From a virus (taxonomy: Duplodnaviria > Caudoviricetes): a stretch of 60,232 bases of DNA. Made by a program: the position numbers and the translations under genes. Below are positions 25,043-60,232 of the stretch, one piece after another (position 1 is the stretch's first letter; every line of letters starts with the position of its first letter). The stretch spans positions 1 through 60,232 of the IMG/VR virus record IMGVR_UViG_3300013119_000728; one strand, given 5' to 3'. The notes beneath the pieces are model-generated. The model was not told where the DNA came from and did not search any database. It was given only the letters and a program-made list of their open reading frames with translations.

Positions 25043-25118
25043 GGGGCGGTATCCCAACGGCAGAGGACCTCGACTTAAAATCGACTCAGTGTGGGTTCGA
25101 ATCCCACTCGCCCTACCA
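25043..25118 (+). tRNA. tRNA-Leu(TAA), short variable arm
   Basis: Cloverleaf, anticodon loop CTTAAAA, GTTCGAATC, encoded CCA. Confidence 0.85.
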
Positions 25119-25153
25119 GAAACTTAAACGCCGAGAGGCAAAAGGAGAATAAG

Positions 25154-25363
25154 ATGAACGTAGATCAACACTTAAAGGTTGCCCAGTGGCATATGGAACA
25201 AGCACGACTTCATGCAACATCAAAGCATAGTTGCGGTTGCCCAGCAAATGAGCACGATCAAAAGGCTATCGATGCAATTGAAGCAATGCTATCAGCACTC
25301 GAGCAGACAGGCAATGAGATTACTGAAGATCAAGAGGCAGCATGCTCAATCACAGGTGAGTAA
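25154..25363 (+). CDS. small hypothetical protein
   Basis: AAGGAG RBS then MNVDQHLK. Confidence 0.55.
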   Translation: MNVDQHLKVAQWHMEQARLHATSKHSCGCPANEHDQKAIDAIEAMLSALEQTGNEITEDQEAACSITGE

Positions 25364-25463
25364 TGTCAAACCTTATGTTTGAAAATCTTGAAACAACAAT
25401 CGATATCATCCTTGCTATCGGAGGTCTATTAGTGACTATCCTAAGCATAGTGGGAGGCCCATA

Positions 25464-25958
25464 ATGAACATAATACCTGCATCAATCTTCAATCCAAACT
25501 CAGAAAATACCAATATGGGATTTGTATTCGAACGGCGAGTCATGAGAGATCTTGAGAAAGCAGGCCTTCACCCTGTGCTGGTGTCTGACTGGCTCGAGCG
25601 TCAATTCCCAGATATCAATCAGGTCGGCTTGAATGCCACTGCAAAGATGATGGGCGATATTATGGTTGTATCTCCAAAGACAGGAGCCCCGGTATTTATT
25701 GAATGTTGTTCAATGAACCCGCCGCCAGGGAAAACTAGGTTTACCACGTCCAAGCCTGAAAACTTTAATGGCCTATGTCGATGGTATGCTCTGGGATATC
25801 CGAGAGCTGAAAATGTTACATACATAAGATCATCAACATGGAATAAGTATGTTCGCAAGACAGACCTGAACGGTGCATATTACGTGTTCCCAACGAAGTA
25901 TATCAACAGCCTCAGCTCAGCAATCCGGAGTTCTCTATCATTCGCCGCGAGCGTCTAA
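25464..25958 (+). CDS. possible PD-(D/E)xK nuclease-like protein
   Basis: GFVFERRV...GDIMVV...VFIEC pattern. Confidence 0.4.
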   Translation: MNIIPASIFNPNSENTNMGFVFERRVMRDLEKAGLHPVLVSDWLERQFPDINQVGLNATAKMMGDIMVVSPKTGAPVFIECCSMNPPPGKTRFTTSKPENFNGLCRWYALGYPRAENVTYIRSSTWNKYVRKTDLNGAYYVFPTKYINSLSSAIRSSLSFAASV

Positions 25959-26380
25959 CCATGGATAGCAAAGAAGTAATCGTGGCACACCTCAATCGTC
26001 TCCGGGATGAAATACCAACCTCAGGCACAATCATGGACGCTGAGGTGACGCGGTGGTTGGACAGAGTCGGTGAGGTGCTAGAAGAATATTACATGTGCAT
26101 TGCGGAGGAGGAAGATGTTTGAAGAACCAAAGCCGCACAAGACAATAAACGAGATCAGGCCCTGGGAAACTATCAGTCTTGTTGTCGGTAACTGCTTGAT
26201 AATTGCATACATTGTTTTCAAGACTACAGGTAATTAAAATGTGTAAATCCAAATCAGCTAAGTTATAATGTCTACGTAATAAAGATCATAACCTCCCTGA
26301 GGAAATGGCTTGGATGTTATTTGATATATGAATACAAGATGAATCGCGCTCGTTATGGGTATTTTCACGCTGCTAATTGT

Positions 26381-26456
26381 GGGTGTGTAGCTTAGCGGCC
26401 AAAGCATCTCACTTTTAATGAGTTGATCGTGAGTTCGAGTCTCACCACACCTACCA
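26381..26456 (+). tRNA. tRNA-Lys(TTT)
   Basis: Cloverleaf, loop CTTTTAA, CCA. Confidence 0.9.
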
Positions 26457-26504
26457 TAGAGTGCGATTCTAGCATAGGATTGATCCACCTCAACGGATCA
26501 CTAT

Positions 26505-26579
26505 GGCCCTGTCGTCTATCGGTTAGGACATCAGGTTTTCATCCTGGTAAGCGGGGTTCGATTCCCCGCAGGGTCACCA
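26505..26579 (+). tRNA. tRNA-Glu(TTC)
   Basis: Cloverleaf, loop TTTTCAT, CCA. Confidence 0.92.
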
Positions 26580-26742
26580 AAGAAAAAGGAGAAATAAGAT
26601 GTCAACAGCAGGCTTATTAAAAGAAATCAATCGTCTTGCAAGTATAAACGAAAAGCTTGCGGCTGAAAACAAGAAGCTGCTAGCATTAAACAAATCACTT
26701 TCAGCACAATTATATAGTAAACATCAAACAGGAGTAGAATAA

Positions 26743-27114
26743 ATGAGTTACAAAACAATGGCAGCAGTAATGAACGCGTATGGTAGTGATCATGCCGGAG
26801 CACAAATGTCAGTCCTAAAGCACAAAAAATCAGGAGAGGCATTCTGGTTTCCTAAGATTAGCAATCCAAGCCCTGGGTGGAAAAATACATATAGAGGAAA
26901 TGTAATTCAAGAGACCGGTCTAACGACAGACAATAAGCAGAGATTGCTTGCTGTTCTAAATCAAAAGCAAAACAGCGATATCCCAGTCAGTCGGAGACAT
27001 TTCCGCAAGGCATTCGGAAAAATCAATGGATCTTATTCGTATTTGGGAGACTTTGAGCTAGATGTAGAAAGCTCAACCAAGTCAGGAACTCTTATTTGGC
27101 GAAAGGTATCATAG
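26743..27114 (+). CDS. hypothetical protein
   Basis: 123-aa ORF with AGGAG RBS between tRNAs. Confidence 0.6.
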   Translation: MSYKTMAAVMNAYGSDHAGAQMSVLKHKKSGEAFWFPKISNPSPGWKNTYRGNVIQETGLTTDNKQRLLAVLNQKQNSDIPVSRRHFRKAFGKINGSYSYLGDFELDVESSTKSGTLIWRKVS

Positions 27115-27121
27115 AATAAAT

Positions 27122-27198
27122 TGGCTCATAGCTCAGCTGGTTAGAGCTTTCGCCTGATAAGCGAGAGGTGGGAGGTTCGAATCCTCCTGGGCCAACCA
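27122..27198 (+). tRNA. tRNA-Ile(GAT)
   Basis: Cloverleaf, loop CTGATAA, CCA. Confidence 0.92.
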
Positions 27199-27269
27199 TG
27201 ATACATTTACCGGGAACGGTATAGAATAGAGAAGTTCAAATCATCTACAACACAAAGAAGGAGAATTAG

Positions 27270-27701
27270 ATGAGCACAGTAGAGACAGGAAACACAGTCA
27301 ACGTCCACTATCGAGGCACTCTTGACGACGGATCAGAGTTTGATAGTTCACACGACCGCGGAGAGACACTAACATTCGAGGTCGGCGCCGGACAAATGAT
27401 CCCGGGTTTCGATGCAGCATTGCCAGGAATGGAAGTTGGCGAGACCAAGAGCATCACAATTAGCGCTGAGCAAGCATATGGTGAGTCAAATCCTGAGGCA
27501 GTTGCTGATGTTCCAAAGGCTAGCTTCCCTGAGAACTATGAGTTCGAAGTTGATGCAATGGTTCAAGGACAAAATGACTCAGGTGAATCAGTCGTTGGAA
27601 TTATCAACGAAGTAAATGATGAGTTTGTAACAATTAATTTCAATCATCCTCTCGCTGGCAAGTCACTGAACTTTGAGATTGAGCTAGTAAGCATCGATTA
27701 G
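27270..27701 (+). CDS. slyD: FKBP-type peptidyl-prolyl isomerase (SlyD/SlpA-like)
   Basis: VHYRGTLDDGSEFDSS, GQMIPGFD, AYG, NFNHPLAGKSLNF. Confidence 0.9.
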   Translation: MSTVETGNTVNVHYRGTLDDGSEFDSSHDRGETLTFEVGAGQMIPGFDAALPGMEVGETKSITISAEQAYGESNPEAVADVPKASFPENYEFEVDAMVQGQNDSGESVVGIINEVNDEFVTINFNHPLAGKSLNFEIELVSID

Positions 27702-27987
27702 GATTAAAGATGACAGTTGACAAAGAAAGACTAAAGCGCTCAAGATACGTGATCATATCAGATGAAGAGCGTCTGAGGTTGAATGATATCGAGGGCGTAG
27801 AATCTCCGATGGATTATCCACCCGAGTTCATGTCATCACCCATCTTTTATAACAACTTGCCCGTTGGGTCCGTAAGTAGAAGCAATAGAAACGTGATTAC
27901 AAATATTGCTTTCGCACTTAAACACCTTAAGAACGTTGAGTATTATTACGGTGACGTTGATCCAGATAGAAAAAGCAAAGGACCTTA

Positions 27988-28605
27988 ATGTTCAAGACAG
28001 TTCTAATTGATCCGCCCTGGAAGAAGACAACAGGTGGAGTAGGACACAAGACACTGGCACCATCAACACATTACGACGTTCAGAATCGTCATCAAGTTCT
28101 GGCAACGCTTGAAGGTTGGTTTGACAAACATGAAGTTGCACCCGAGGCACACCTTTACCTGTGGACGATCAACTCATTCACAGCGGGAAAAGATCAGGGT
28201 ATCATTCCGGGAATGGAGCTTTGCAAGAAGCTTGGCTTCACCCCGGTAACCTTGATTCCGTGGGTCAAGAACGGCGCAGGAAGTCCCACGCCATATGGCA
28301 TGAGGCATACTGAGATGTGCATCTTCGGTGTCAGGTATCGAAAAGGCATGGGTAAAAACACACGCTACAGTGGCACTGAGGATCCTGAGAATGTTGTTAA
28401 CGGGAAAGGATTATGCTCATCTCGAGATTACATCATTGAACCACGTCGCGAGCATTCTCGTAAGCCTGATGCATTCTATGAGTATGTTGAGAAGAGAAGT
28501 GCTGGTCCCTATCTTGAGCTCTATTCACGAACCTCCCGGCCCGGGTGGGTTGCAGAAGGAAATCAAACGGGCACGTGGGGTCCTAAAAAAGATTTAAACA
28601 AATAA
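27988..28605 (+). CDS. MT-A70 family adenine methyltransferase
   Basis: IDPPW, HLYLWT, REHSRKPD, LELYSR...GW..GNQ. Confidence 0.88.
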   Translation: MFKTVLIDPPWKKTTGGVGHKTLAPSTHYDVQNRHQVLATLEGWFDKHEVAPEAHLYLWTINSFTAGKDQGIIPGMELCKKLGFTPVTLIPWVKNGAGSPTPYGMRHTEMCIFGVRYRKGMGKNTRYSGTEDPENVVNGKGLCSSRDYIIEPRREHSRKPDAFYEYVEKRSAGPYLELYSRTSRPGWVAEGNQTGTWGPKKDLNK

Positions 28606-28650
28606 TGGCAGCATAATATAATTTATGCATATTGAGTAATATTTATGTTG

Positions 28651-28801
28651 GACCCCTGGCATTCATATTACGCCTCCAAGGGAGTTTTGGTGGGACCGCC
28701 ATCCTATCATGCTTCCTGATCCTGGCGGGGATCGAAACACTATTAGTTAAATGCTGGGTTACTACTTAACCAGCTTAAAAACCAAGTAGAACCCAGGGGT
28801 C
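28651..28801 (+). ncRNA. candidate structured ncRNA of unknown class
   Basis: 9-bp closing helix GACCCCTGG/CCAGGGGTC enclosing four hairpins; ATATTTAT just upstream. Confidence 0.55.
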
Positions 28802-28806
28802 ATTTT

Positions 28807-28882
28807 GCCGGTTTAGCTCAGTTGGAAGAGCATCTGATTTGTAACCAGAAGGCCGGGGGCTCGATTCCTCCAACCGGCACCA
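28807..28882 (+). tRNA. tRNA-Thr(TGT)
   Basis: Cloverleaf, loop TTTGTAA, CCA. Confidence 0.88.
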
Positions 28883-28903
28883 AAAATTGATTGTGTGAAT
28901 ATC

Positions 28904-29233
28904 ATGTATGAATATAGTGCAAAAGTTACAAAGGTCTATGATGGAGACACGATCACGGTTGACTTCGATTTAGGTTTTGGTATCGTTCTGAGAAAACAAA
29001 AGATTCGATTGCTTGGGATCAACACACCCGAAGTCAGGGGAAAATCCCGTGAGCAGGGTCTGATATCAAGGGACCGGCTTCGCGAGAGGATCATGGGAGA
29101 AAATGTCATCATCAAGACGACCAAAGACCGCAAGGGAAAGTATGGTCGTTGGCTCGGCGAGGTGTTTATAAAAGATGAGAATATAAATCAGTGGCTTTTA
29201 AACGAAGGCTTGGCTGAGAAGTATAATAAGTAG
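28904..29233 (+). CDS. thermonuclease (SNase) family protein
   Basis: VYDGDTI, IRLLGINTPE, GKYGRWLG, NEGLA. Confidence 0.92.
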   Translation: MYEYSAKVTKVYDGDTITVDFDLGFGIVLRKQKIRLLGINTPEVRGKSREQGLISRDRLRERIMGENVIIKTTKDRKGKYGRWLGEVFIKDENINQWLLNEGLAEKYNK

Positions 29234-29243
29234 AAAGGAATAG

Positions 29244-29319
29244 GCGGCCATAACTCAATTGGTAGAGTACCAGTTTTCCAAACTGGATGTTGTGGGATCA
29301 TGCCCCACTGGCCGCTCCA
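29244..29319 (+). tRNA. tRNA-Gly(TCC) with atypical T-loop
   Basis: Cloverleaf, loop TTTCCAA, T-loop ATCATGC, TCCA end. Confidence 0.85.
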
Positions 29320-29377
29320 GAAGTTAAAATATATAGGGTTAATTGCTCTACCAAACGATATTTATTATTAGAGGTAG

Positions 29378-30088
29378 GTGATTATGATAAGTGAAAAAAG
29401 TCAACTAAGAATAAAAGAAGAATGGAAAAACAAAGACGGTCTATATGATTGTCCGTATTGTGAAAAATCGTATGTAAAACGCGGAATCAGTACACATATT
29501 TGGCGTAATCATTCTGCTCAAGGTCAGGAATTTAACAAAAACTCAATCAACAATCAGGGCTATGCAAACGGAACAAGAACAGCCTGGAATAAAGGACTAA
29601 CAAAAGAAATGCACCCAAGCCTCAAGAAGGCCGGAGAAACGTATAAAAAGAAAATTGCTTCTGGTGAAATAATTGTAAAAAGCATTCCGCTATCTGAGTT
29701 ACATAAAGAGAAAATATCAAATGGAATGAAATCTGCTCATGCAGAAGGCAGGGCCTGGAACATAGGAAGATCTAGATGGAATAATGAACCAAGCTGGCCA
29801 GAAAAATTCTTTAAACAAGTTATCGAGAATGAGTTTGATAACAAAAAGTTTAAGATGGAATATCCAGTATCTATTTATTCTTGCGATTTTGCGTGGCCAG
29901 AGATTAAAAAATGCATAGAAATTGACGGCGCTCAACATCAGCGGTTCGATGAAGTAAAAGAGAGAGACAAAAGGAAAGATGAATGTTTAAAAGAAAATGG
30001 ATGGGAAGTTCTAAGAATACCTTGGAAAGATTTTTATAAAAACACAAAGAAGTGGATAAAATTAAGTAACGAATTTATTGGAGAGTAA
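29378..30088 (+). mobile_element. putative homing endonuclease (C2H2 finger, NUMOD3-like motif, DUF559/Vsr-like domain)
   Basis: CPYC..H..H, AWNKGLTK, YSCDFA...IEIDGAQH...GWEVLRI. Confidence 0.75.
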
Positions 30089-30153
30089 CTCAATGGAAGA
30101 GTGCGAAGCTGTTAACTTTGTGGTTGTGGGTTCGAGCCCCTCCTCTCCAGCCA
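30079..30153 (+). tRNA. tRNA-Asn(GTT)
   Basis: Cloverleaf, loop CTGTTAA, GCCA end. Confidence 0.85.
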
Positions 30154-30182
30154 AAAGTTAGGTTTCTTTAAAAAACCATAGT

Positions 30183-30270
30183 GGAAAGTTGGCCGAGCGG
30201 TCGAAGGCGATGGATTTGAAATCCATTGAGGTGCAAGTCTCCGAGGGTTCGAATCCCTCACTTTCCTCCA
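30183..30270 (+). tRNA. tRNA-Ser(TGA)
   Basis: Long variable arm, loop TTTGAAA, CCA. Confidence 0.9.
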
Positions 30271-30272
30271 CT

Positions 30273-30348
30273 GGGGATATAGCTCATCTGGTAGAGCACC
30301 TGCTTTGCACGCAGGATGTGATCGGTTCGATCCCGATTATCTCCACCA
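30273..30348 (+). tRNA. tRNA-Ala(TGC)
   Basis: G3:U70 pair, loop TTTGCAC, CCA. Confidence 0.93.
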
Positions 30349-30374
30349 TAGACCGAAATGTCTGTAAACTACGT

Positions 30375-30451
<77 letters not shown>

Positions 30452-43643: not shown

Positions 43644-44690
43644 ATGGATTTCAAAACCTTTAATCTCGTAACCCAGGCTTTGCCTAAAGAGATTGCTGTA
43701 CTCACTCGAGGCCCACACGGTATCGGTAAGTCCCAAGCGGTTCGCCAGCTGGCCGATCACTTTGACATGCCCATGATCGATCTCCGGCTCGGCCAAACCA
43801 CCGAAGGCGACCTGATCGGCATCCTGGATGATGATGACACTGTCGTTAACGGCTTCAAGTCGGTGGCATTCCGTCGACCGAAGTGGTTGTTGGGTTGTGT
43901 TGAAACGCCTACGCTCATTCACTTCGACGAGATCAACCGTGGCTCTCCGGAGGTTTTGCAAGCTGTATTCCAGCTCATCCTCGATCGTGAGATCTGGGGT
44001 TTGAAGATCCACCCGGACTGCCGAATCTTTGCATCAATCAATGCATCAGCTGAATATCAGGTGAACGAGATGGATCCGGCTCTCCGAGATCGCTTCTTCA
44101 TCGTGGATCTTGAGCCTACCACCGAGGACTGGTTGGACTGGGCAGCAGGAAAGATCGACTCTGGTTTGATCGACTTCGTCCGGCAGAATCCGCAGCATCT
44201 CGAATGCAAAGAGAATGTTGAGGCAGATCGAATCACTCCTTCTCGTCGATCTTGGGAACGTGTCAATCATGCTCTCACTAATGCGGGGGTTGTTGATAAG
44301 CCTACTGATCAACTCTTCTACCCGCTCTGCATGGGCTTGATCGGTCCGGAGGCTTCGATCGCTCTCACCGAGTTCATCAAGAAGTATGACCGCCAGATCT
44401 CGGCCGAGGACATCCTAGATAAATGGAGCATGAAGGTCAAGAAGAAGGTAAAGGAAGCACCGCAGGAGCAACTCAACGGTGTGGTCGAGAAGGTTTGCGA
44501 TCACGCAGACAAGGGTGAGTGGAACCAGAAGCAGGTTGATAATGCCTTCAAGTTCATGAAGGTGCTTCCCGGCGAACTGGTTATCGCATTCTGGACCAAG
44601 ATCACTGATCGGAACTTCAAGAACGCGCAGAAGCTTCACAAGCAATGCTCTCAGCTTCTACTCGAGGTGATTGGTGAGACGAATGCCTGA
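43644..44690 (+). CDS. MoxR-like AAA+ ATPase
   Basis: GPHGIGKS, HFDEINR, ASIN, MDPALRDRF, SRRSW. Confidence 0.9.
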   Translation: MDFKTFNLVTQALPKEIAVLTRGPHGIGKSQAVRQLADHFDMPMIDLRLGQTTEGDLIGILDDDDTVVNGFKSVAFRRPKWLLGCVETPTLIHFDEINRGSPEVLQAVFQLILDREIWGLKIHPDCRIFASINASAEYQVNEMDPALRDRFFIVDLEPTTEDWLDWAAGKIDSGLIDFVRQNPQHLECKENVEADRITPSRRSWERVNHALTNAGVVDKPTDQLFYPLCMGLIGPEASIALTEFIKKYDRQISAEDILDKWSMKVKKKVKEAPQEQLNGVVEKVCDHADKGEWNQKQVDNAFKFMKVLPGELVIAFWTKITDRNFKNAQKLHKQCSQLLLEVIGETNA

Positions 44691-45242
44691 TTCAATTAAG
44701 GCAGGTGGCGAGGCCGGGGCAAAAGCTCCGGTCTCTCCGTTTGTGCCTGGGGATCTGGTTGAAGAAAAATCCACAGGCAAACAAGGCACGATCACTCGAA
44801 CGCCATCAAACTACTATTCAGAGGTTCATATGGATGGCATTAGGAGAATGATTCCCAACGAATGGTTGGTTGTGTGCAACTTATTAGAAGACCCAGTATA
44901 ATAAGCACAGGAGGAGCGATGAACATCGGAGACATGATCAAGCCGCGTCGAACACTCGAGCTTTTCAACGGAAAGCTCTATCCCTACTATAGTGCCGAAG
45001 GCACCGATTTTGAAATTTGCAATGCGAAAACGGGAGAAACTTATTCTGCCGCAATGATTATCGGACAAGAACGGGTTAAACGCCCATCGCGACGCAGGCG
45101 CGGCACTCCGACAATGTCAGTTTTGGTTCGGGTTTTGATCGCAGGGCAAAAGGTATTGATGTCAAAGAATGAATTAAATGCCCTGTTTGAAGCTGTGTAA
45201 GTTTCAAATGTATGTATACAATAAGGGCACAAGGAGAAAGTA

Positions 45243-46754
45243 ATGAGTAAAGACAAAGGCACTGCATCACTTCCAAAAGGCATTCAGGATCGCTTGAATG
45301 AGATCAGGAAGGATGCGAAAGCATATGCAAAGAAGGTTGAGGATGCGAAGGGATTTGAAATTGGTCCGCATCTGGTCTCCCTCATGTGGGATGAGCCTTT
45401 CTATTCTGCAGTGTCCCGCCGGATCACGAAGTCAAGAGTCCTTGACGTCCCGACCGCCGGAGTTTATGTTCAAGATGGTTCACCCACTCTGCTGTGGAAC
45501 CCGGTCTTCTTCAATGAGATGCCCAAAGAACATATCCGCGGAGTCCTAATCCACGAGTTCATGCATCTAGTCTATGATCACGTCACCTCCCGCCGTCGAG
45601 AGCCACACATGCTCTGGAATCTGGCTACCGATGCAGCGATCAACAGCATGATCCCCCGTAAAAACCTCCCCGACAATCTAGTCTTACCTGGAGAGAAAAA
45701 CGAACACGCCAAAGCTGACGACCCAATTTGGAATCTGATCGCTTCCTGGCCCAGAGAGAAATCATCTGACTGGTACATGAGCCAGCTGCTTAATGACGAC
45801 GACGTTCAAAAGCAACTACAGCAACAACAGCAATGCCCAGTGCACGGCGAAGATGCTGAGGATGACGATGACAACAGCAATGGCAGCCAGGCCTCGCCAG
45901 ACAGTGATGGCGATGATTCCGATGACGGAGATGGTGGCAACCAAGACGGCGAATCCGGAGATGATGGCGATCAACCTGGTGATGGCCACGGCCACGGCAA
46001 TAGTGACAAGGAATGCTCTTGCTCACACGGCAGCCCCGGATCTGGCATGGGCGATCACGAAGGATGGGGCGACATGTCCGATGCTGAACGTGAGCTGGTT
46101 AATGGCAAGATCCGCGAGATCCTCCGAGATGCTGTGAAAGAAGCAGACTCCCGCAATGGCTGGGGATCTGTCCCGTCCAACATGCGCGAAGAGCTCCGGC
46201 AAATGGTGTCAAACCAAGTCGACTGGAAAGCAATTCTCCGGCAGACAATCGGTCTTGCCCTAAGCTCCACCAAAACCTCCACCCGCAAAAAGCGGAATCG
46301 CAAATATAAATTCATCCATCCCGGCATCAAGCGGAAGCGTCAAGCCCGGGTATTCTGTGCGGTTGATGGATCCGGATCGGTCGGCAACGAAGACATTGAG
46401 CTTCTCTTCGGCGAACTCTCCGGCCTCGCAAAGCGAGTGGATATCGACGTCGGATTCTTCGACACCCGCATTGATGAGGAGTCAATCTTTACCTGGAAGC
46501 GAGGAACTCGAGTTGCCCCAACCCGACCTGTTTGCGGCGGCACAGACTTCAACGCACCCACTGAGTTTATCAACAAGCAGGTCAAAGGCCGCTACGATCT
46601 ATTGGTTATCTTGACCGACGGAGAAGCACCCGCCCCAATTCCCTGCAATGTCCGCAGAGCCTGGGTGATCTGCCCTGACCGGAAGCTGATGTTCGAGACC
46701 AAAGAAACTGTAATTCAAATGGATCGGAAAGATGAGAAAAAGAATGTTGCATGA
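45243..46754 (+). CDS. DUF2201-type HExxH plus vWA domain protein
   Basis: HEFMH, WNLATDAAIN, acidic linker, VDGSGS, GGTDF, LTDG. Confidence 0.88.
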   Translation: MSKDKGTASLPKGIQDRLNEIRKDAKAYAKKVEDAKGFEIGPHLVSLMWDEPFYSAVSRRITKSRVLDVPTAGVYVQDGSPTLLWNPVFFNEMPKEHIRGVLIHEFMHLVYDHVTSRRREPHMLWNLATDAAINSMIPRKNLPDNLVLPGEKNEHAKADDPIWNLIASWPREKSSDWYMSQLLNDDDVQKQLQQQQQCPVHGEDAEDDDDNSNGSQASPDSDGDDSDDGDGGNQDGESGDDGDQPGDGHGHGNSDKECSCSHGSPGSGMGDHEGWGDMSDAERELVNGKIREILRDAVKEADSRNGWGSVPSNMREELRQMVSNQVDWKAILRQTIGLALSSTKTSTRKKRNRKYKFIHPGIKRKRQARVFCAVDGSGSVGNEDIELLFGELSGLAKRVDIDVGFFDTRIDEESIFTWKRGTRVAPTRPVCGGTDFNAPTEFINKQVKGRYDLLVILTDGEAPAPIPCNVRRAWVICPDRKLMFETKETVIQMDRKDEKKNVA

Positions 46755-50211: not shown

Positions 50212-50289
50212 GGACCTCTATCATAATCTGGTTAATGAACCCGCCTCATAAGCGTGCCTATGTAGGTTCGAGTCCTACGGGGTCTACCA
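50212..50289 (+). tRNA. tRNA-Ile2(CAT), lysidine type
   Basis: Loop CTCATAA; acceptor GGACCTC with C4:G69 and C5:G68; no initiator features. Confidence 0.8.
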
Positions 50290-50328
50290 AGAAGTTAGCT
50301 GATCTTCTTGATTCAAAATCAGCCTTAA

Positions 50329-50405
<77 letters not shown>

Positions 50406-50411
50406 AGTGGG

Positions 50412-50493
50412 GAGTGCAGGGCAGAAAGATAGCTGGTAAGGCTTGCGAGCAATAAAGCTATCTTGTGTTTGCGTAAGCGTTTAGGCTGCACTT
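50412..50493 (+). ncRNA. candidate structured RNA between two tRNAs
   Basis: GAGTGCAG/CTGCACTT and AAGATAGCT/AGCTATCTT helices plus hairpins. Confidence 0.45.
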
Positions 50494-50522
50494 AGATGAG
50501 GAAGATGGGAACCTTGTCGTCT

Positions 50523-50604
50523 GGTCGGGTGGTGGAATTGGTAGACACGCTAGATTTAGGTTCTAGTGCCTTAAGGTGTGAGAGTTCGAGTCTCTCCCCG
50601 ACTA
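50523..50604 (+). tRNA. tRNA-Leu(TAG)
   Basis: GGTGGAATTGGTAGACAC D-arm, loop TTTAGGT, variable arm; CCA not encoded. Confidence 0.9.
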
Positions 50605-50951
50605 CAAAATAAACGGGTTGAATCAGGTCACTTTGCTATATTTACAAACGTGGTTTGATGTACGCGGAGGAGAAAGGTTTGGCTTCCTTTAAGCATGATA
50701 TAAAAAGTCTTCGTCAGCGCCCCCGTCACGCCACACTTTCATTGGAGGAATGCAGATGATTAAGTCTAAGATCACAATGAATGACCTAGAAAAAACCATA
50801 AAAGCATATCGGGATATGGCAGACGAAGCCAAGTCTGCCGGCAATAACCTTGCCAGCTGCCAGTGCATAGCAATTGCTGATGAGTTGGCAAAATGTGCAA
50901 AATACACCCACGATTATTATAATAGTGATGCAAATAGCGACGGAGTCAACG

Positions 50952-53296: not shown

Positions 53297-54552
53297 TCTT
53301 GTCACTTATTCTTTTAATGGCACCTCCCGGGCTTTCCGTCGAGGATACTGATGTTCTCAATCAAAGCCACCCCGGATCAAAGATCACTTGCCCAGTATTC
53401 TATACCAATGCTGAGATCTTCGCTATGCACTCTGGCGAGATGCTCAGGGTCAAGCAGACAAGTGCTGGTCGGCTGATCAAGAAGATCCATTGTTACAAGA
53501 ACACAGTCATCCCTTTGACTAAGCGGTGCATTCAAGATGATCATTCTCCGAGGCTTTGCAAGCTTCGTGCTAGAAACTGGTGGAAGTATACGAGGAATGT
53601 GCAAACAGCTCTCCGCTAGGTTATAATAAATACACAACAACCAAGGGAGAGAAAAGATGTTAATCGGTATGGACGGTGAAGTTCGCAAGGAATACACACT
53701 CAGCATCACACGCCTGATGCGCAAGATCGATGAAGGCATTGACGAACTCGAGGATCACGACGCAGTTGACTTTGTCTCGCCCACAATCCGGGCAGCGCTG
53801 AGTATGCAACTTACACAGATGATCGACCAGCACTTCATTCAAGATCTTCTGCCTAGCGTCTACCTTGAGGATGATCCGCTTCGGGACAATTCTGTTATTG
53901 GTAGCTCCCCGATTACGAAAGAAGATCTGAACCTTTTTGCCTTCATGAGCGAGGAGGATTGCCCCGATGAGCTATAATAAAAGCACACATAGGTTCGAAG
54001 TATCATTCACATTCAAAGACAAATCCGGAGCTGATAGAACGGCTCACGCAATCTGGGATATTCTGTCTGACACTGCCGAAAATGCCGGGGTTGAAGTGAA
54101 GAATATGTTAGAAAACTATTGCGGGGGCGAGATAGTAAAGCGCATTAATGATTGACTACAAAAAACAAAAAGCAGTGATCATCCCCCAGTGGGTTCTAGA
54201 CATGATAATTGATCAGCTCGATATTCAGCTCGATTCTTTGCTTCAAGAATATGAATGGAATGCTAGAACGGGCGCAGAAATGAAAGAAATCACCAAAGAG
54301 GTGGGTCTCTACGAAGAAGCGCTAGCACAGCTTTCCAGTCAATGCTAAGCAATCCTTAAGGACATAAATCGGACAATCGCAGCGACCAACGCAGAACCTC
54401 TGGCAGCTGTTATAAACATGCTTCCCAGGATGTGTATAATATTTTGGGAGTTTAGAACAAATGATTCCGCCAGTGTTCAGTTTAGTAATTGCAAAAATGC
54501 ACGATCGCTTAGAAGAAGATCATCAAAAGCTTAATAAAAATCGAGGAAAATA

Positions 54553-55341
54553 ATGTCGTATACAGGATTTGTAGGGATCATGACGCAATATTGCTCTAAT
54601 TTAAAATCACCAACAGTTTTAGAAATCGGGGTAGATAAAGGGCAAACAACACTACCGCTAATTCATAATCTTATGCTTTATAATCCTGACTTTAAATATG
54701 TCGGCGTTGATATTCGAATGGATCACTTATTGATTGAGCAAATGGCGCAAATGAAGGGGATCAAGTCGATTGTAGCAAAATCTGATATTGACTCTTTGTC
54801 TAGCTATTTCTCTAATCCTTCGTGGGAGGATGACACTAGCTGGAACTCGATGTATATTGAGCAAAATAGTCTTGCATTTCTTCCAATGCTGGCAGAGTCC
54901 GGGGCCAAGTTTGATCTTGTCTTAATTGATGGAGATCATAACTACCCAACAGTCAAACAAGAACTTAAGTATCTGAAAGATATTACTCATCCTTCGAGCT
55001 TGGTAATTTGCGATGACTACAACAGCAAGAGACATTCCGGAAAAGATAGTTTCTATAGAGACACTGAATCTCACAAACATATCAAAGACAGCATTGATGT
55101 TATTCAAGCCGTTGATGGAAAATCTGGGGCGGATCAAGCCATCAATGAGTGGATTGAGCAAAACGAAGACTGGAATGTTAGTTTCACTGAAGACCTGGAA
55201 CCGGCGATTTTATCATCAAAATACTTGAAATACAGCATTGAAAACATGAATATGCTTTATAAAGCCATGGCAACGTTTGGCGTCACACCCGAAGGTGCAC
55301 ATAGATTCAAGATAGATAACGCACGTCGACAGATATCGTGA
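54553..55341 (+). CDS. class I SAM-dependent methyltransferase (Methyltransf_24-like)
   Basis: VLEIGVDKGQT, GVD, FDLVLIDGDHNY, ICDDY. Confidence 0.85.
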   Translation: MSYTGFVGIMTQYCSNLKSPTVLEIGVDKGQTTLPLIHNLMLYNPDFKYVGVDIRMDHLLIEQMAQMKGIKSIVAKSDIDSLSSYFSNPSWEDDTSWNSMYIEQNSLAFLPMLAESGAKFDLVLIDGDHNYPTVKQELKYLKDITHPSSLVICDDYNSKRHSGKDSFYRDTESHKHIKDSIDVIQAVDGKSGADQAINEWIEQNEDWNVSFTEDLEPAILSSKYLKYSIENMNMLYKAMATFGVTPEGAHRFKIDNARRQIS

Positions 55342-55678
55342 ATTCATCTTTCCGGGAAGTCATAACAGAAACAACATAACTAGTTAGTCTATAGAGTAGA
55401 GACGCTAAAGAGTCTAGATAGCGTAGTAGCCACCCGCGTGCTAAGTCTCATACTACCTCAGCGCTCTGATTGCTAGTCATATGCTGTATCTTGTGTATGT
55501 CAGCGTCTTCTCTGCGTGGCAGTGGATATTTGTCCCGCCCAGCTGGGTCATCGAGGGGCAGTGGATACGGGTCTACTGTTTATGGTAAATTCTGCGTCTG
55601 CTAGGATAGGGTGAAAAATGCTGGTGGTCGGTGAGGAGGCTGTAACTAGGGCCCCGCGCGCACCCTCCCGATATCTCG

Positions 55679-55726
55679 TTGTCTTAATTTGTCTCATATT
55701 GTCTAGCATTGTATCTAGATCTAGAT
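55679..55726. repeat. 10-bp-phased TTGTCT repeats and ATCTAGATCTAGAT palindrome
   Basis: TTGTCT at 55679, 55689 and 55699; TTGTAT at 55709. Confidence 0.7.
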
Positions 55727-55853
55727 TACAGTCTCAATTGAATTGCGTATAACATTATACATCTCTCATTCGTAGCGCTGATACTAGTCAGCTAGCATTT
55801 AAGCCAGTGCACGTTATTCATTTGGGCCGGGCGGGGTATAATAATATAGGTAG

Positions 55854-56015
55854 TTTTAGTCGACGCAGTTTTAGTCAACGAAAAGAAAAGCTCTGTCCCG
55901 GCGCAACTAAATTGTGGCGAGCATAGAGTTCAATTTTAGTCGACGATTAGGGCTAGCGATTTAAGCCAAGAAGGGCAGCACGGTCGATGACAGGCAGCAC
56001 TGATTTTAGTCGACG
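55854..56015 (+). repeat. four TTTTAGTCGACG direct repeats
   Basis: Copies at 55854, 55869 (one mismatch), 55934 and 56004. Confidence 0.85.
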
Positions 56016-56239
56016 CGTTTAAGCGAGGAAATTATGACAAAAAACCTTACATCAAAAGAAGTTGAATTAATTCTCAGAAACAGTGCGATCGGCCAGATAA
56101 TGCTGTATGATACAATTGAGATGCCGGTGGTCCACTACTATAAAAACGATAAAGACGAGTTGAGATTCATTACACTGTGGCGACATAATTGGGTGTAAAA
56201 TCTTCCGACTAAGTGTATAATGATATCATAGGAGATTAC

Positions 56240-56554
56240 ATGAGCTCACAAGATTCTATCACTTACTTCACAGTTATCGGACCGGGGTCGCGATCTCTCG
56301 CAAATTTTAGACTCGAGTCCGATGCACTCGAATTCAAAGAGCGTGTCGTCAATGCTCGGCTAGCTCAACTCGATCGGATCAAAGATCGACTCACTAGTGG
56401 TGAGCTCAGGGGCGAGCTTAACTTCAGGCGCAACGGCATTCGTATCGAGCAACAGACAATCGAGTTCATGTCCCAGAGCGAGTCACGCGATATCTCAGAC
56501 GAGAACTTGGTCGATGGCAGGTTCCTGATTCCAGTCGGCCGGCGCTCAATATGA
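56240..56554 (+). CDS. early hypothetical protein
   Basis: Promoter near 56193, AGGAG RBS. Confidence 0.6.
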   Translation: MSSQDSITYFTVIGPGSRSLANFRLESDALEFKERVVNARLAQLDRIKDRLTSGELRGELNFRRNGIRIEQQTIEFMSQSESRDISDENLVDGRFLIPVGRRSI

Positions 56555-56703
56555 TCCGGTAAACAATGTGCAATATTGGCGCTCGAGCTTATACTCTAAG
56601 GGAGAGGTGGGCGGGGTAGGTCATTGTTTGGCTAGCGGCCATGTGCAACTCTCGGCATGATGTATATAATAATATCACAACCGCCGGCTAAGGAGCCAAA
56701 ACA

Positions 56704-56922
56704 ATGGACTGCCACTACATCGACAAAGCTAATGGTCGCATCACCCTCTTCACGTTCAACTTCACTGATGAAGGCTTTAATCAGGTCTATGCCCGTGATG
56801 CAGAGGACGCATACGATATCGCAACCAGGGCCTTCGGTAGTAAACTCAAGGTTGACAAACGCACAATTCGCGAAGTCACCGACCGTGATGCATACTACAA
56901 CAACTTCCCACTGATGGATTGA
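56704..56922 (+). CDS. early hypothetical protein
   Basis: Promoter and CACAACC...AAGGAG leader. Confidence 0.65.
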   Translation: MDCHYIDKANGRITLFTFNFTDEGFNQVYARDAEDAYDIATRAFGSKLKVDKRTIREVTDRDAYYNNFPLMD

Positions 56923-57018
56923 TTGTGCAAATCCGGCAGAGCACTTTACAACTGCAAGTGTGCAGGTTGCCCAGCTAGCCGTATAATATAAACACAACCA
57001 CCGGCTAAGGAGCCAACC

Positions 57019-57366
57019 ATGTCTAATATCGATTCCCAACTTAATGATGCTATCCTCGATGCAGTCGGCCGCTATGCTGGTGAGATGCAAGACCGCTTTG
57101 ACACTGACGGCGATCCGAGCTTGACTAACCGCCCTCTCTGGAATGCTCAGGTTGCAGCTGCTACTAACATGCTTGAGAGCGAGCTCCGGCTTGAGATTGA
57201 GCAGGCTTTCCAACGTGTTAACGATTTGCTCGATGACGGTGACTTTATGGCTAGCGGCGAGGTTGTTATAACGCAGGCTTTTCTCCGGAAGCGGGAACTA
57301 GAGGCCAACACTCCCGGCATCGTCCCGCTTGAGGAATTGTGTAAAGTTCCCAACAACGTATTATAA
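57019..57366 (+). CDS. early protein, tandem paralog A
   Basis: MSNIDSQLNDAI...LESELRLEIEQAFQRVNDLLD. Confidence 0.7.
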   Translation: MSNIDSQLNDAILDAVGRYAGEMQDRFDTDGDPSLTNRPLWNAQVAAATNMLESELRLEIEQAFQRVNDLLDDGDFMASGEVVITQAFLRKRELEANTPGIVPLEELCKVPNNVL

Positions 57367-57394
57367 TAAATCTATACCAACCAAGGAGAACATA

Positions 57395-57715
57395 ATGTCT
57401 AATATCGATTCCCAACTTAATGATGCTATCCGATACGCAGCCCGCCGCTATGCTCGTGAGATGCAAGAACGCCTTAAAGCCAGCTTCGATCTGGGCTCGC
57501 GTGCCCACTTTCCCGGGATTGGTCAGGTTATAGCTGCTTCTAACATTCTTGAGAACGAGCTCCGGCTTAAGTTTGAACAAGACATGCTTGAGAACGAGCT
57601 CCGGCTTAAGTTTGAACAAGTCTTCCAGCGAGTTAACGATCTACTCGACAACGGTGACTTCATGGCCCACGTTGAGGTCAAGATACGTCAGGCTTGGCTC
57701 CGGGAGCGGAACTAA
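57395..57715 (+). CDS. early protein, tandem paralog B
   Basis: MSNIDSQLNDAI; internal 39-nt-period duplication. Confidence 0.7.
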   Translation: MSNIDSQLNDAIRYAARRYAREMQERLKASFDLGSRAHFPGIGQVIAASNILENELRLKFEQDMLENELRLKFEQVFQRVNDLLDNGDFMAHVEVKIRQAWLRERN

Positions 57716-57812
57716 GAGGCCGATACTTCCGTGCCCAACCTGAGTAATTGTGTAAAGTTCCCAACAACGTATTATAATAATCATATAACCCAATCAACCA
57801 AAGGAGTCCACC

Positions 57813-58034
57813 ATGACTAAGTTTATTCTCGATACTCAAAACGTTGCATCAAAATCTACTGAGGTTGATATTAATGTTGAAGGTGACACTGCGCTGATTC
57901 AGTTTGGACATAGCTTTACCCTTCGTCTTGATGAGCTCAATATCGATATTCTTCGTGATCAACTTTTCGATGCTTCCCGGGAACTTGCTCGAAGCCGTTG
58001 CAACAAGGATGTGTGGGCTCGCGATGCTAGTTAA
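57813..58034 (+). CDS. early hypothetical protein
   Basis: Promoter 57750-57778, AAGGAG RBS. Confidence 0.6.
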   Translation: MTKFILDTQNVASKSTEVDINVEGDTALIQFGHSFTLRLDELNIDILRDQLFDASRELARSRCNKDVWARDAS

Positions 58035-58272
58035 GAATGCGATTACCAAAGCGATCAAAGCTGGTATGGTACCAGACGTTCGGGAACGAATGATCGAGAT
58101 CACCAATCCAGTTAACGGTCAGCGTTGCAGTTGCCGTCGTCAACAACTTGATCCGAACGAAACTGTTGGTCAATGGAAGGTTCATGGCTCTCAACCAGAT
58201 CAACCTCAGTTCGACAACTTCTATTCAACCTATGTTGACAATCTTACACAAGCACTGAGGTTGATTAAATAA
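58024..58272 (+). CDS. early hypothetical protein
   Basis: MLVKNAITKA..., overlaps the upstream stop. Confidence 0.55.
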   Translation: MLVKNAITKAIKAGMVPDVRERMIEITNPVNGQRCSCRRQQLDPNETVGQWKVHGSQPDQPQFDNFYSTYVDNLTQALRLIK

Positions 58273-58298
58273 TACATTCTCTGTGAGTTACACAATCT

Positions 58299-58375
58299 GG
58301 GCTTGTATCTCAATTGGTTAGAGAACCCGCCTCATAAGCGGTTGGTTGAAAGTTCGAGTCTTTCCAGGCCTACCA
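58299..58375 (+). tRNA. tRNA-Ile2(CAT)-like, second copy
   Basis: Loop CTCATAA, Ile-like acceptor GGGCTTG, ACCA end. Confidence 0.8.
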
Positions 58376-58978
58376 AATAATGTGTAAAACGCAGAGAATG
58401 CTTTACAATATAATCACAACCACAACGCCGGGAGGCAATAATGACCTTTGCTATTTACAACACTAACACCGGCGAGATTCTTGATGAGATCGCTGACCCA
58501 CGGGATGCTTGGGATCGTATGATCGATATCGAAGAAGAGACCGGACAGGATTGTGCACTTCGTGAGATGGAGGAAAGCAAATGAGCAATAACCTACACAA
58601 GCTGATCGCTGGATGCAAGAGGCAAATCCAAGAAGTAGAGGAAGAGATCTGTTACGCTAGGATCTCTGGTGCAAAGACTGTGGATCTTGAGGATCACCGC
58701 CGTCAATTGTGCAACCGTCTAGCCGAGTTTGAAAAAAGGCTATTTGACTAATATTGTGTAATACACACAGAACATAATATAATAAACATAGAAAACCAAC
58801 ACAGGAAATATAAAATGACAAACGCTTTCATCGAAATGTACTTCGTAGCATGCAACGCAATCATCATCTACTATCTATATCAATTCAACAAGGATATCAG
58901 CGAATTCATCAATCATCGTGAGGTGCAAAACACCAAGAAGGACGTATAATATAATCACAACCAACCAAGGAGATATTA

Positions 58979-59722
58979 ATGCAGCTCAATACCCAACTTA
59001 AAGACTTTGCGCAAGGCACCAACATTCTCAGCATCGACATTCCACGACAGCTGGAAGAGACTGCTAAGACAGGCATCAGTTATATTGATCACGCCTTCGG
59101 TGGCCAGGGTATGACTCCTTCGGTTGCGACACTAATGACAGGCACCCCGGGTGCCGGCAAGACGACGCTGATGTTGCAATTGGCAGACAGTCTTACGCGT
59201 CAAGGGCACGCGGTTCTCTTCAACACAGCTGAGGAGAGCTTGTTCCAGGTTCGTAGGACGGTTAAGCGTCTCGGTCTTCGCAACGGCTTCTATGCAGGTC
59301 AGGACACTCACGTCCCTACCATCCTCAAGCACTGTGACAAGATCCGCGAAGAGAACCCAGGCAAGCAGTTCTTCGTCATTGTTGATAGCCTTCAAACGCT
59401 AGACGATGGCCACTTCAACTCCGGACGTATTACGACAGCGACGGCGGAGAGGTCATTGCAGCAGATTACTGATTACTGCAAAGAGAATTGGGCAATTGCA
59501 CTAGTGATTGGGCAGGTGAATAAAGCGGGCAAGTTTAGCGGAAGCTCCAAGCTTAAGCATATGGTCGATGCACACTGTCACCTCTTCGTTGACACAGATC
59601 AGAAGTCAGACAACTTTGGCTACCGGATCTTCGAGGTGCAAAAGAATCGGTTCGGCGGAGCAGGTCACGGGTATATCCTCGATATGACTCGATCTGGGCT
59701 TAAAGAATACGGCTCATTGTAA
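58979..59722 (+). CDS. RadA/Sms-like ATPase (ATPase domain only)
   Basis: GTPGAGKTT, AEESLFQV, IVDSLQT, LKHMVDAH, KNRFG. Confidence 0.85.
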   Translation: MQLNTQLKDFAQGTNILSIDIPRQLEETAKTGISYIDHAFGGQGMTPSVATLMTGTPGAGKTTLMLQLADSLTRQGHAVLFNTAEESLFQVRRTVKRLGLRNGFYAGQDTHVPTILKHCDKIREENPGKQFFVIVDSLQTLDDGHFNSGRITTATAERSLQQITDYCKENWAIALVIGQVNKAGKFSGSSKLKHMVDAHCHLFVDTDQKSDNFGYRIFEVQKNRFGGAGHGYILDMTRSGLKEYGSL

Positions 59723-59731
59723 GAGATAGGT

Positions 59732-59827
59732 TAAGAACGCTGTGGTTGGTCGTTCTTACTCCTTGGGTGGGGGACAGGTTGAGCTAAGTAGGATCGTGGT
59801 TGGTCCCTATGGTGCTCCCTGTCTCCC
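59732..59827 (+). ncRNA. candidate structured RNA with two GTGGTTGGTC motifs and an anti-SD segment
   Basis: Hairpins TAAGAACG/CGTTCTTA and GGGGGACAGG/CCTGTCTCCC. Confidence 0.5.
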
Positions 59828-59901
59828 GTAATCCCTAAAATGCATTATGTGCAATAATCCAGCCAACAAGCTATAATATAAACACAACCAAGGAACTAAT
59901 C

Positions 59902-60099
59902 ATGGCAACCGGATACAGCATTCAAAACCCCGACGGATCCTACCCAAAGTCTGCCTCTGCCGGTACGCCGATCTGGTGGAGTTCATATGATGCCGCCTGG
60001 AAGGGGTGGCAAAACGGCTACGGCGCATCAGCAGCCAATGTAGTCAAGGTCAATCTTCGACCATCACCCTTCGGCTACAATGGATACTCGATCGTTTGA
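59902..60099 (+). CDS. early hypothetical protein
   Basis: Promoter plus CACAACCAAGGA leader. Confidence 0.6.
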   Translation: MATGYSIQNPDGSYPKSASAGTPIWWSSYDAAWKGWQNGYGASAANVVKVNLRPSPFGYNGYSIV

Positions 60100-60159
60100 T
60101 TGTGCAATAATCAGAGAACCTTTTATAATAACTACGTAACCAACCAAAGGAACTAAACT

Positions 60160-60232
60160 ATGTCCACTCGATCCACTATCGGCTATCAAGATTCAGACGG
60201 CAACTTCATCGGCGTTTACTGCCACTTCGACG
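60160..60232 (+). CDS. phage hypothetical protein, partial (MSTRSxIG...YCHxD family)
   Basis: MSTRSTIGY...GVYCHFD runs off the window end. Confidence 0.6.
   Translation, partial: MSTRSTIGYQDSDGNFIGVYCHFD

Follow-up and report, generated by a model that had tools for sequence, protein, structure and literature searches.

The window analysed here is the whole of viral record IMGVR_UViG_3300013119_000728 (Duplodnaviria; Caudoviricetes), a linear metagenome record of 60,232 bp. It carries a radA-like gene followed directly by R1, a structured non-coding element. R1 is best explained as the 3′ untranslated end of the radA-like mRNA, directly 5′ of the next promoter. Segments of R1 are complementary to the leader and Shine-Dalgarno (SD) sequence that recur ahead of the neighbouring small genes.

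The radA-like locus

The record is estimated to be ~17% complete and is probably a fragment of a ~350-kb phage, presumably a lytic giant phage. Nearly all window genes lie on the + strand. The protein encoded by the radA-like gene (Table 1) matches phrog_26214 (3e-21) and ATPase, DnaB-like and UvsX-like PHROG families. Annotated RadA proteins were found by tblastn at 24–34% identity. No close relatives were found in viral contigs searched with this protein. A metagenome scan with the same query recovered four contigs, L037–L040 (protein 87% identical), and one distant match. A DNA query of 59400–60232 found zero relatives in the phage collection, and no close cultured phage was found, the best ligase matches reaching ≤39% identity.

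A promoter-leader cassette precedes most small genes in the window (53600–60232), L037–L040 and L118–L120. Its clade-wide layout is TGTG(T/C)AA, ~15 nt, TATAAT, 7–9 nt, AACCAACCA, SD, ATG. Seven copies lie at 53.6–60.2 kb of the window, 11 in L039 (8.7 kb), 10 in L040 (6.5 kb) and 4–5 in L037 and L038. The form TGTG(T/C)AA-N-TATAAT-N7–9-AACCAACC recurs ahead of many genes in the relatives. A simple sigma-70 scan misses the cassette because its −35-like part is atypical (not TTGACA). Judged from the −10 position, the leader word would lie at ~+3 to +11 of the transcripts. Cassette-bearing gaps are typically 35–67 nt long; the gap after the radA-like gene is 179–196 nt, longer because the element sits there beside the cassette. 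No U-tract terminators were seen in the small-gene array. In L037 (1395–1430), L039 (4911–4945) and L040 (2737–2770), the leader of the gene after the element contains a mini-hairpin, AUCCUUGAAAGGAU. This hairpin would sequester its own SD (AAGGA), directly past AACCAACCAA.

Table 1. Coordinates of R1, its surroundings and the family D copies
Feature	Position	Strand	Details
Promoter-like cassette of radA-like gene	58923..58950	+	GTGCAA, 16-nt spacer, TATAAT; putative function
Predicted radA-like 5′ leader ACAACCAACCAAGGAGAUAUUA	58957..58978	+	ACCAACCA word and SD AAGGAG; start placed from the −10
radA-like / RecA-fold ATPase gene	58979..59722	+	247 aa, P0001
Whole structured element (model R1)	59726..59842	+	AUAGG to CCCUAAAAU; sharp conservation boundaries; ~115 nt (117-nt RNA)
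Hairpin 1 (P1, 8 bp, and apex CUG-UGGU-UGG)	59732..59758	+	GTGGTTGGTC at 59742–59751
Linker CUCCUUGGGUGG	59759..59770	+	anti-SD plus anti-CCA(A)CC
Hairpin 2 (P2–P6)	59765..59835	+	apex with GTGGTTGGTC at 59796–59805
Next promoter-like cassette (TGTGCAATAAT ... TATAAT)	59848..59877	+	TGTGCAATAAT again at 60101
Predicted next-gene leader ACAACCAAGGAACUAAUC	59884..59901	+	precedes ORF 59902–60099
Family D, full copy	G003:57169-57300		L125 8135
Family D, full copy	G002:34868-34970		L120 2869
Family D, full copy	G009:194595-194740		L124 4309
Family D, full copy	G010:1158-1260		L102 1158
Family D, partial copies	G003: 54776 and 69018		two in addition to the full copy

Structure of the element

An earlier note, made from the sequence of the window, had described two hairpins in the gap after the radA-like gene, a linker between them and four gene leaders. 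All of these features are present where the note placed them. The arms of hairpin 1 are TAAGAACG (59732–59739) and CGTTCTTA (59751–59758), and those of hairpin 2 are GGGGGACAGG (59769–59778) and CCTGTCTCCC (59818–59827). The 60,232-bp window contains exactly two copies of GTGGTTGGTC, one at 59742 and the other at 59796. Positions 59759–59770 read CTCCTTGGGTGG, and the four leaders lie at 53638, 57376, 58959 and 60138.

RNAfold gives −50.0 kcal/mol for the + strand at 59723–59840 (z −4.87), a value equalled by 0 of 200 shuffles. The − strand of the same region reaches −36.5 kcal/mol (z −4.2), 13.5 kcal/mol poorer. The two hairpins are real, but the architecture is richer than the note supposed. 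The 5′ part comprises P0 (AGG/CCU), P1 (8 bp), the apex CUG-UGGU-UGG, the linker and P2 (GGG/CCC). The 3′ part comprises P3 (11 bp), P4 (GAGC/GCUC), P5 (5 bp) and P6 with its apex (AUCG-UGGU-UGGU). The linker overlaps P0 (CCU), P2 (GGG) and the first part of P3. Because the fold is richer than two hairpins, each GUGGUUGGU is predicted to form a UGGU tetraloop on weak G-U pairs and not an open 10-nt loop. Among 20,000 order-1 Markov samples of the element, 4 contained TGGTTGGT at least twice and 527 a repeated 10-mer.

Searches against known RNAs were negative. Rfam 15 gave one 14-bit chance match for segment 59600–59950 at E ≤ 10, outside the element, and no match to any family for relatives L037–L040 at E ≤ 1. 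ARAGORN detected no tRNA or tmRNA at the element or in L037–L041. An intrinsic terminator scan found no site at the element, where hairpin 2 is followed by GUAAUCCCUAAAAUG and no U-tract. With no separate promoter or terminator found, the element looks like a 3′ untranslated region (UTR).

Several other readings of the locus were set aside. A promoter for the element itself was dropped: upstream, only ATAGG is kept, and a TAGAAT in L037–L039 would start transcription inside P0/P1. A coding role was dropped because the lengths of the allele indels are not divisible by three and neither strand has an ORF of ≥30 aa. A promoter and leader on the minus strand were dropped because no TATAAT lies at cassette spacing. 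A G-quadruplex between GGUUGG units was dropped because L037–L039 read GGUUAG.

The tetraloops could in principle bind tRNA 3′ ends. The T-box bulge and RNase P L15 pair with the ACCA-3′ ends of tRNAs, and UGGU loops might do likewise. Four UGGU units are spread across the two apexes, and the window contains 14 tRNA genes (ARAGORN; Rfam at its gathering threshold lists 14 tRNAs and nothing else). In record G002, described below, a tRNA-Leu-like sequence occupies the place after the radA-like homologue. The idea is pure analogy, however, pairing of a 4-nt tetraloop would be weak and the linker would be left unexplained, so this role is barely credible.

Conservation and alleles

R1 lies directly 3′ of the radA-like gene in all four close relatives. 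The R1 covariance model finds one copy per contig in five of five contigs, scoring 143–146 bits for allele A (window and L037–L039) and 94.5 bits for allele B (L040). The alleles differ by 12 substitutions and by seven deleted and two inserted positions, so that 18% of the element is altered. Allele B nevertheless folds on its own to the architecture of allele A (−47.9 kcal/mol, z −2.97). Among random mutants of allele A carrying an equal load, 7 of 1,000 fold as well as allele B.

Most helix changes in L040 preserve pairing. In P1 of hairpin 1, both partners of an A-U pair have changed to give G-C. P3 is shorter by 2 bp and P5 by 1 bp, each deletion being compensated on both strands, and P3, P5 and P6 have G-U to G-C or U-G to C-G changes. 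Two changes between the alleles are not preserving: P1 carries a deletion on one side only, and a terminal U-G pair has been lost. Among the copies of allele A, the three helix differences are all G-U to A-U at paired positions, and a few others fall in the unpaired 3′ tail. In L037–L039, a G-to-A change turns a U-G pair of apex 1 into U-A and keeps the helix. Standard pairs fill 99% of pair cells, against 46–56% with partners slid, and three pairs show double changes, a number reached by 1 of 500 shuffles; the alignment behind both statistics was fitted to the R1 model and so leans towards structure.

The stems drift while the apexes GUGGUUGGU and the linker CUCCUUGG(G)U are identical in the window's allele A and in allele B. 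The invariant segments of the two alleles are two (C)GUGGUUGGU apexes and the linker (C/U)UCCUUGGGU(U)GG. CUCCUU (UUCCUU in L040), 37 nt past the stop codon, is kept in five of five copies. Folding and covariation in relatives had been proposed as a check by the earlier note, and the result is a structure conserved in four of four relatives, with compensated changes between the two alleles. Conservation of the motifs held for the linker and apexes across the two alleles, but not for apex 1 in L037–L039.

There is little doubt that the element is a genuine conserved structured non-coding element. It is most simply an RNA read from the + strand, because of its wobble pattern and the energy gap between the strands; the earlier note's view that G:U pairs favour the plus strand is borne out by both that gap and the G-U to G-C or A-U changes. 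A DNA-level element would instead consist of single-stranded DNA hairpins (an origin or priming signal beside a RecA/DnaB-fold gene) or of an inverted protein-binding box, ACCAACCAC, which also lies downstream of the promoter −10. In every cassette the distance between the box and TATAAT is constant, which could reflect DNA recognition, and PHROG searches give the neighbouring protein weak DnaB-like and primase/helicase matches. Yet the many G-U (G-T) pairs, with changes to G-C or A-U that suit the + strand only, the poorer − strand fold and a box spacing that is not constant (54 vs 51 nt) make a DNA-level role very improbable.

Searches for further copies were also made. Three element-specific pattern scans of viral contigs gave zero matches each. 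R1 was found in 0 of 61 cassette-pattern loci, most of which are probably chance matches, and in 0 of 8 whole viral records. A scan of viral contigs for paired GTGGTTGGTC...GTGGTTGGTC returned 34 loci, rejected as non-homologues since blastn to the element matches only the 11–13-nt motif; many of them are tandem repeats at multiples of 3 nt. A pattern scan of prokaryote genomes gave four matches, a number compatible with chance, and none fits R1.

Possible modular exchange

Identities of the element and of its gene disagree. Between the window and L037–L039, the element is 98% identical and the adjacent gene 79% (third codon positions 51–54%). Between L040 and L037–L039, the element is 81–82% identical and the adjacent genes 91–93%. 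The element is therefore strongly constrained, exchanged as a module, or both. The window and the relatives also have different genes 3′ of the element. Together with the mismatch, this suggests that the element was exchanged as a module or that one allele replaced another, as judged from sequence comparison.

Such exchange is familiar from the promoter-early stem-loop (PeSL) cassettes of T4-type phages (PMC2839356, PMC4122927), the closest precedent for the genomic context. In these cassettes, a G-run/C-run stem-loop stands before an A/T-rich stretch, an early-type promoter, an SD and an ATG, in arrays of small ORFan genes with signs of modular exchange. R1 might likewise be part of a composite cassette, its stem-loops serving as attenuator or insulator and as 3′-end stabiliser just 5′ of an early promoter. 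Its leader complementarity would in that case be incidental, arising for instance when repeated promoter-leader cassettes recombine. The order of stop codon, G-run/C-run stem-loop, A/T-rich stretch, −35/−10, SD and ATG agrees with these sources, R1 ends at 59842 with the promoter-like site at 59848–59877, and the small genes of the region form an array in which every gene has a promoter of its own. The element tree conflicts with the gene tree (window–L037, 98% vs 79%; L040, 82% vs 93%), and the differing gene after the element fits cassette-mediated shuffling. Three of the four full copies of family D, a second element described below, likewise lie just upstream of a promoter.

However, the element accompanies only 1 of ~10–11 cassettes per relative, the other gaps being 35–67 nt. 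Being single among them, it does not correspond to the stem-loop half that a PeSL repeats. Compared with the PeSLs described in the same papers, the R1 stem-loop is single-copy, ~115 nt long, two-domain and conserved in sequence, and only the promoter-leader part is repeated. The U-tract is lacking, and a terminator needs neither 115 nt at 98% identity nor invariant apex and linker words on drifting stems. A PeSL-like role is a serious candidate, though rather unlikely.

Complementarity to the leaders

Apex 1 and apex 2 (8 nt each) and the linker (8–12 nt) are complementary to the leader and SD. The window element holds four 8-mers complementary to local leaders, against 0.155 expected (Poisson 2e-5), and the L040 element six, against 0.22 (1e-7); enrichment is weak in L037–L039 (p 0.03–0.22), and all these p-values are inflated by overlapping k-mers. 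In the 22.5 kb of L037–L040, ACCAACCA occurs on the minus strand inside the element only (five of five occurrences).

The 8-bp duplex of an apex with ACCAACCA has an energy of −11.0 kcal/mol, and opening each 8-nt site costs 3.3–5.7 kcal/mol. The window linker forms 11 of 12 pairs with its own radA-like leader, CCAACCAAGGAG (−16.3 kcal/mol). The linker of allele B, through an inserted U, fits CCAACCAAAGGAA at 12 of 13 positions, as read from the sequence. Complementarity to the shared leader and SD, as claimed in the earlier note, is thus supported as exceeding chance by the 8-mer enrichment and the Markov samples, at the level of sequence. Mimicry of the 16S rRNA 3′ end was considered and dropped: the order of words is the same, but the leader is not contiguously pairable with what we take to be the 16S sequence.

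Family D, a second scaffold with the same word

Two viral records, G002 and G003, have the cassette and encode radA-like homologues 51–56% identical to the window protein. R1 was not found in either. Directly past stop codons, both carry (A)ACUCCGUGGUUGGU(G/A)(U/G)UU on the gene strand, the contiguous complement of leader and SD. A scan for this word also finds G009 and G010; five other matches are coding sequence of an unrelated group. The copies in these four records, one full copy per record (Table 1), form family D.

Family D begins with invariant ACUCCGUGGUUGGUGUU, contiguously complementary to leader and SD. A variable hairpin follows, then invariant GGAG(A/G)GAGAGCUGGUUACUCUCGGG, GGG-N3-GGG(U/C)GGG and a leader-like 3′ strand. 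The loop CUGGUUAC, within GGAG(A/G)GAGAGCUGGUUACUCUCGGG, is complementary to GUAACCA. The leader-like strand is predicted to pair with the 5′ word, and all its variation is compatible with wobble pairing. No Rfam match was found for family D. The R1 model, run with filters off on family D loci, gave noise-level hits (E 0.8–9), the best of which coincide with D sites; homology was not shown. Although R1 and family D are not significantly alignable, the 10-mer CGUGGUUGGU is identical in both, and each has an ACUCC-G/U-rich junction. That two different scaffolds both carry the anti-leader word is the strongest indication of a functional complementarity.

Other sequences follow the radA-like homologues of these records. 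After the G003 homologue (L103 2254–2420) lies a small terminator-like hairpin with two direct repeats of a GC-rich unit (UGUAUCUCGCGCUACGC...). After the G002 homologue (L104 2254–2450), the tRNA-Leu-like sequence is followed by a hairpin. G003 encodes two radA-like paralogues, at 63390 and 44116.

The apexes could alternatively be protein-binding sites. The twin hairpins (YG-UGGU-UGG) would be recognised by an RNA-binding protein of phage or host (a translational repressor or a processing enzyme, for instance) or would act as a decoy target, with leader complementarity irrelevant. Two like apexes on helices, invariant in sequence between alleles with drifting stems, suit this reading, as does the helix-preserving G-to-A change in apex 1. 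It leaves unexplained the 11/12 to 12/13 complementarity of the linker to leader and SD and the contiguous anti-leader word of family D, and it names no partner protein. Protein binding of this kind is distinctly improbable as the main role.

Predicted pairing within the mRNA

The whole predicted radA-like mRNA was folded thermodynamically (~890 nt, from its predicted start to the end of the element). In the minimum free energy structure, the mRNA's own SD region pairs with the linker in four of four homologues, with a probability of 0.97–1.0 in the window and 0.3–0.9 in the other homologues. The SD is unpaired with a probability of 0.00–0.20 with the element and 0.48–0.91 without it. When read-through is modelled for the window, the next leader instead becomes the partner of the linker and apex 1 (P 0.86), a pairing that is weak in L039 and L040 (0.01–0.07).

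As a control, 23 transcription units were folded, 20 controls and three radA-like units. Of all SD pairing, the fraction directed to the last 130 nt was 0.79, 0.46 and 0.57 in the radA-like units and below 0.4 in 17 of 20 controls. The result for pairing in cis is suggestive and not decisive, because two to three of the 20 controls behave alike.

Proposed function

We tentatively favour R1 as a 3′-UTR anti-leader riboregulator, at somewhat less than an even chance. In this model, which follows the logic of icaR or c4 RNA, R1 would pair with the leader and SD of its own or of other cassette mRNAs. The linker, aided by the apexes, would pair with the leader and SD of its own mRNA, joining the 5′ and 3′ UTRs. 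The element might have further partners: the next leader, where transcripts read through, or other cassette mRNAs, acted on in trans. Pairing would mask the ribosome-binding site (RBS) and possibly provide RNase III with a double-stranded substrate. As the element accumulates, it could damp the translation or stability of cassette genes.

A wider proposal is that one structured RNA per genome gates a whole regulon, in cis and in trans, across a clade of uncultured marine giant phages. Dozens of small-gene mRNAs would begin with (G)UAACCAACCA and then the SD, and a single-copy scaffold, R1 or family D, would display the exact complement, CGUGGUUGGU plus CUCC. Shut-off or processing of all leader-bearing messages would make it an RNA counterpart of T4 RegA/RegB. 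The scaffold would evolve freely while the seed co-persists with the leader. We consider this proposal unlikely.

Several points weigh against regulation by leader pairing. Neither a promoter of its own nor a U-tract terminator for a discrete small RNA was found at the element. The seeds are only 8 bp long, with a net energy of ~−7 kcal/mol after opening. They are also partly sequestered, because the U-G to C-G change in P6 and the U-G to U-A change in apex 1 support UGGU tetraloop helices. The G-to-A change in apex 1, present in three of five copies (one lineage, L037–L039), weakens the leader duplex from −11.0 to −4.4 kcal/mol. It strengthens the apex helix, and the leaders of L037–L039 are unchanged despite it. 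Dimer ensemble energies are weaker than those of shuffled RNAs (−3.5 to −5.9 vs −7.1 to −9.7 kcal/mol), a limited result since the cofold method forbids loop-target pairing. In family D, the word may be a helix-building block and not a free seed, because it is predicted to pair in cis with the leader-like strand. Long-range RNAfold pairings are unreliable, and three short controls also show SD pairing to the 3′ end (shares: L039 5239, 0.94; L040 2737, 0.93; L040 4606, 0.46). R1 is known from three independent lineages only. The element was found in no RNA run, four runs yielding zero contigs, which counts neither for nor against a transcript. The layout also fits a PeSL-like stem-loop ahead of an early promoter.

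The earlier note had proposed a multi-seed antisense RNA or a cis element. The predicted pairing of the linker with the mRNA's own SD in all four folds is suggestive for the cis alternative; for a discrete antisense RNA, no separate promoter or terminator was found. The note's labels "early regulon" and "shut-off" stand as inference.

Relation to known systems

The closest mechanistic precedent is the icaR mRNA of Staphylococcus aureus. Its 3′ UTR carries an anti-SD motif that pairs with the mRNA's own SD, blocks initiation and makes a substrate for RNase III (PMC3868564). R1 resembles icaR in having an anti-SD motif in a long conserved 3′ UTR with predicted pairing to its own SD. It differs from icaR in that its target is a leader common to many mRNAs, it has three complementary segments on a compact two-domain fold, it is phage-encoded, and it is known here from sequence alone. 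The interaction of the hbs 5′ and 3′ UTRs is reportedly a related case.

The c4 RNA has two short complementary segments and is excised from the same transcript by RNase P. R1 shares the trait of at least two short segments complementary to a target RBS in the same transcription unit. The c4 antisense RNA of phages P1 and P7 (PMC8198154, which cites Citron & Schuster 1990) is the closest phage precedent, a small structured RNA from the target's transcription unit whose short discontinuous segments cover the RBS. R1 matches no Rfam family, C4 antisense RNA included, in sequence or structure. Furthermore, c4 governs one operon in a temperate immunity circuit, whereas R1 could address at least 10 leaders in a presumably lytic giant phage. 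By the criteria compared, R1 belongs to none of the icaR, c4 and PeSL systems.

T4 RegA and RegB are proteins that shut down many early mRNAs post-transcriptionally through a shared feature of the ribosome-binding region. The effector proposed here is an RNA. To our knowledge, phage-encoded regulatory RNAs are few, and the known ones act on one operon or on host genes. A literature search of main texts did not find the leader word or the element and returned only unrelated or general phage-transcriptome papers.

If the proposed pairing is true, an RNA that recognises a leader common to many of its own early-type messages would be a new way of timing viral gene expression. The short seed/leader pair would also be a testable handle on regulation in giant marine phages that have not yet been cultured. 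Even without that function, R1 is a new RNA family that is structurally supported and sharply bounded; its two alleles have diverged, and it shows signs of exchange as a module. The regulon defined by the promoter-leader cassette is recognisable in metagenomes.

Other features

The 14 tRNA genes of the window fall into three groups (25043–30447, 50212–50605 and 58299–58375). A single tRNA-Met lies 0.6 kb 5′ of the radA-like gene, within the cassette array. The window also encodes a full-length DnaJ (7389–8405), an ATP-dependent DNA ligase (22197–23486), a MoxR-type AAA ATPase that adjoins a DUF2201 VWA/metallopeptidase-like protein (the two at 43644–46754), and an M23 peptidase. Three near-identical viral contigs (L049 7290–7350, L069 4000–4060 and L098 9540–9600) contain a hairpin, CCUAUCUCCUU/AAGGAGAUAGG, whose loop carries the G/U word CCGUGGUUGGUUGGUG and which is followed by a U-run.

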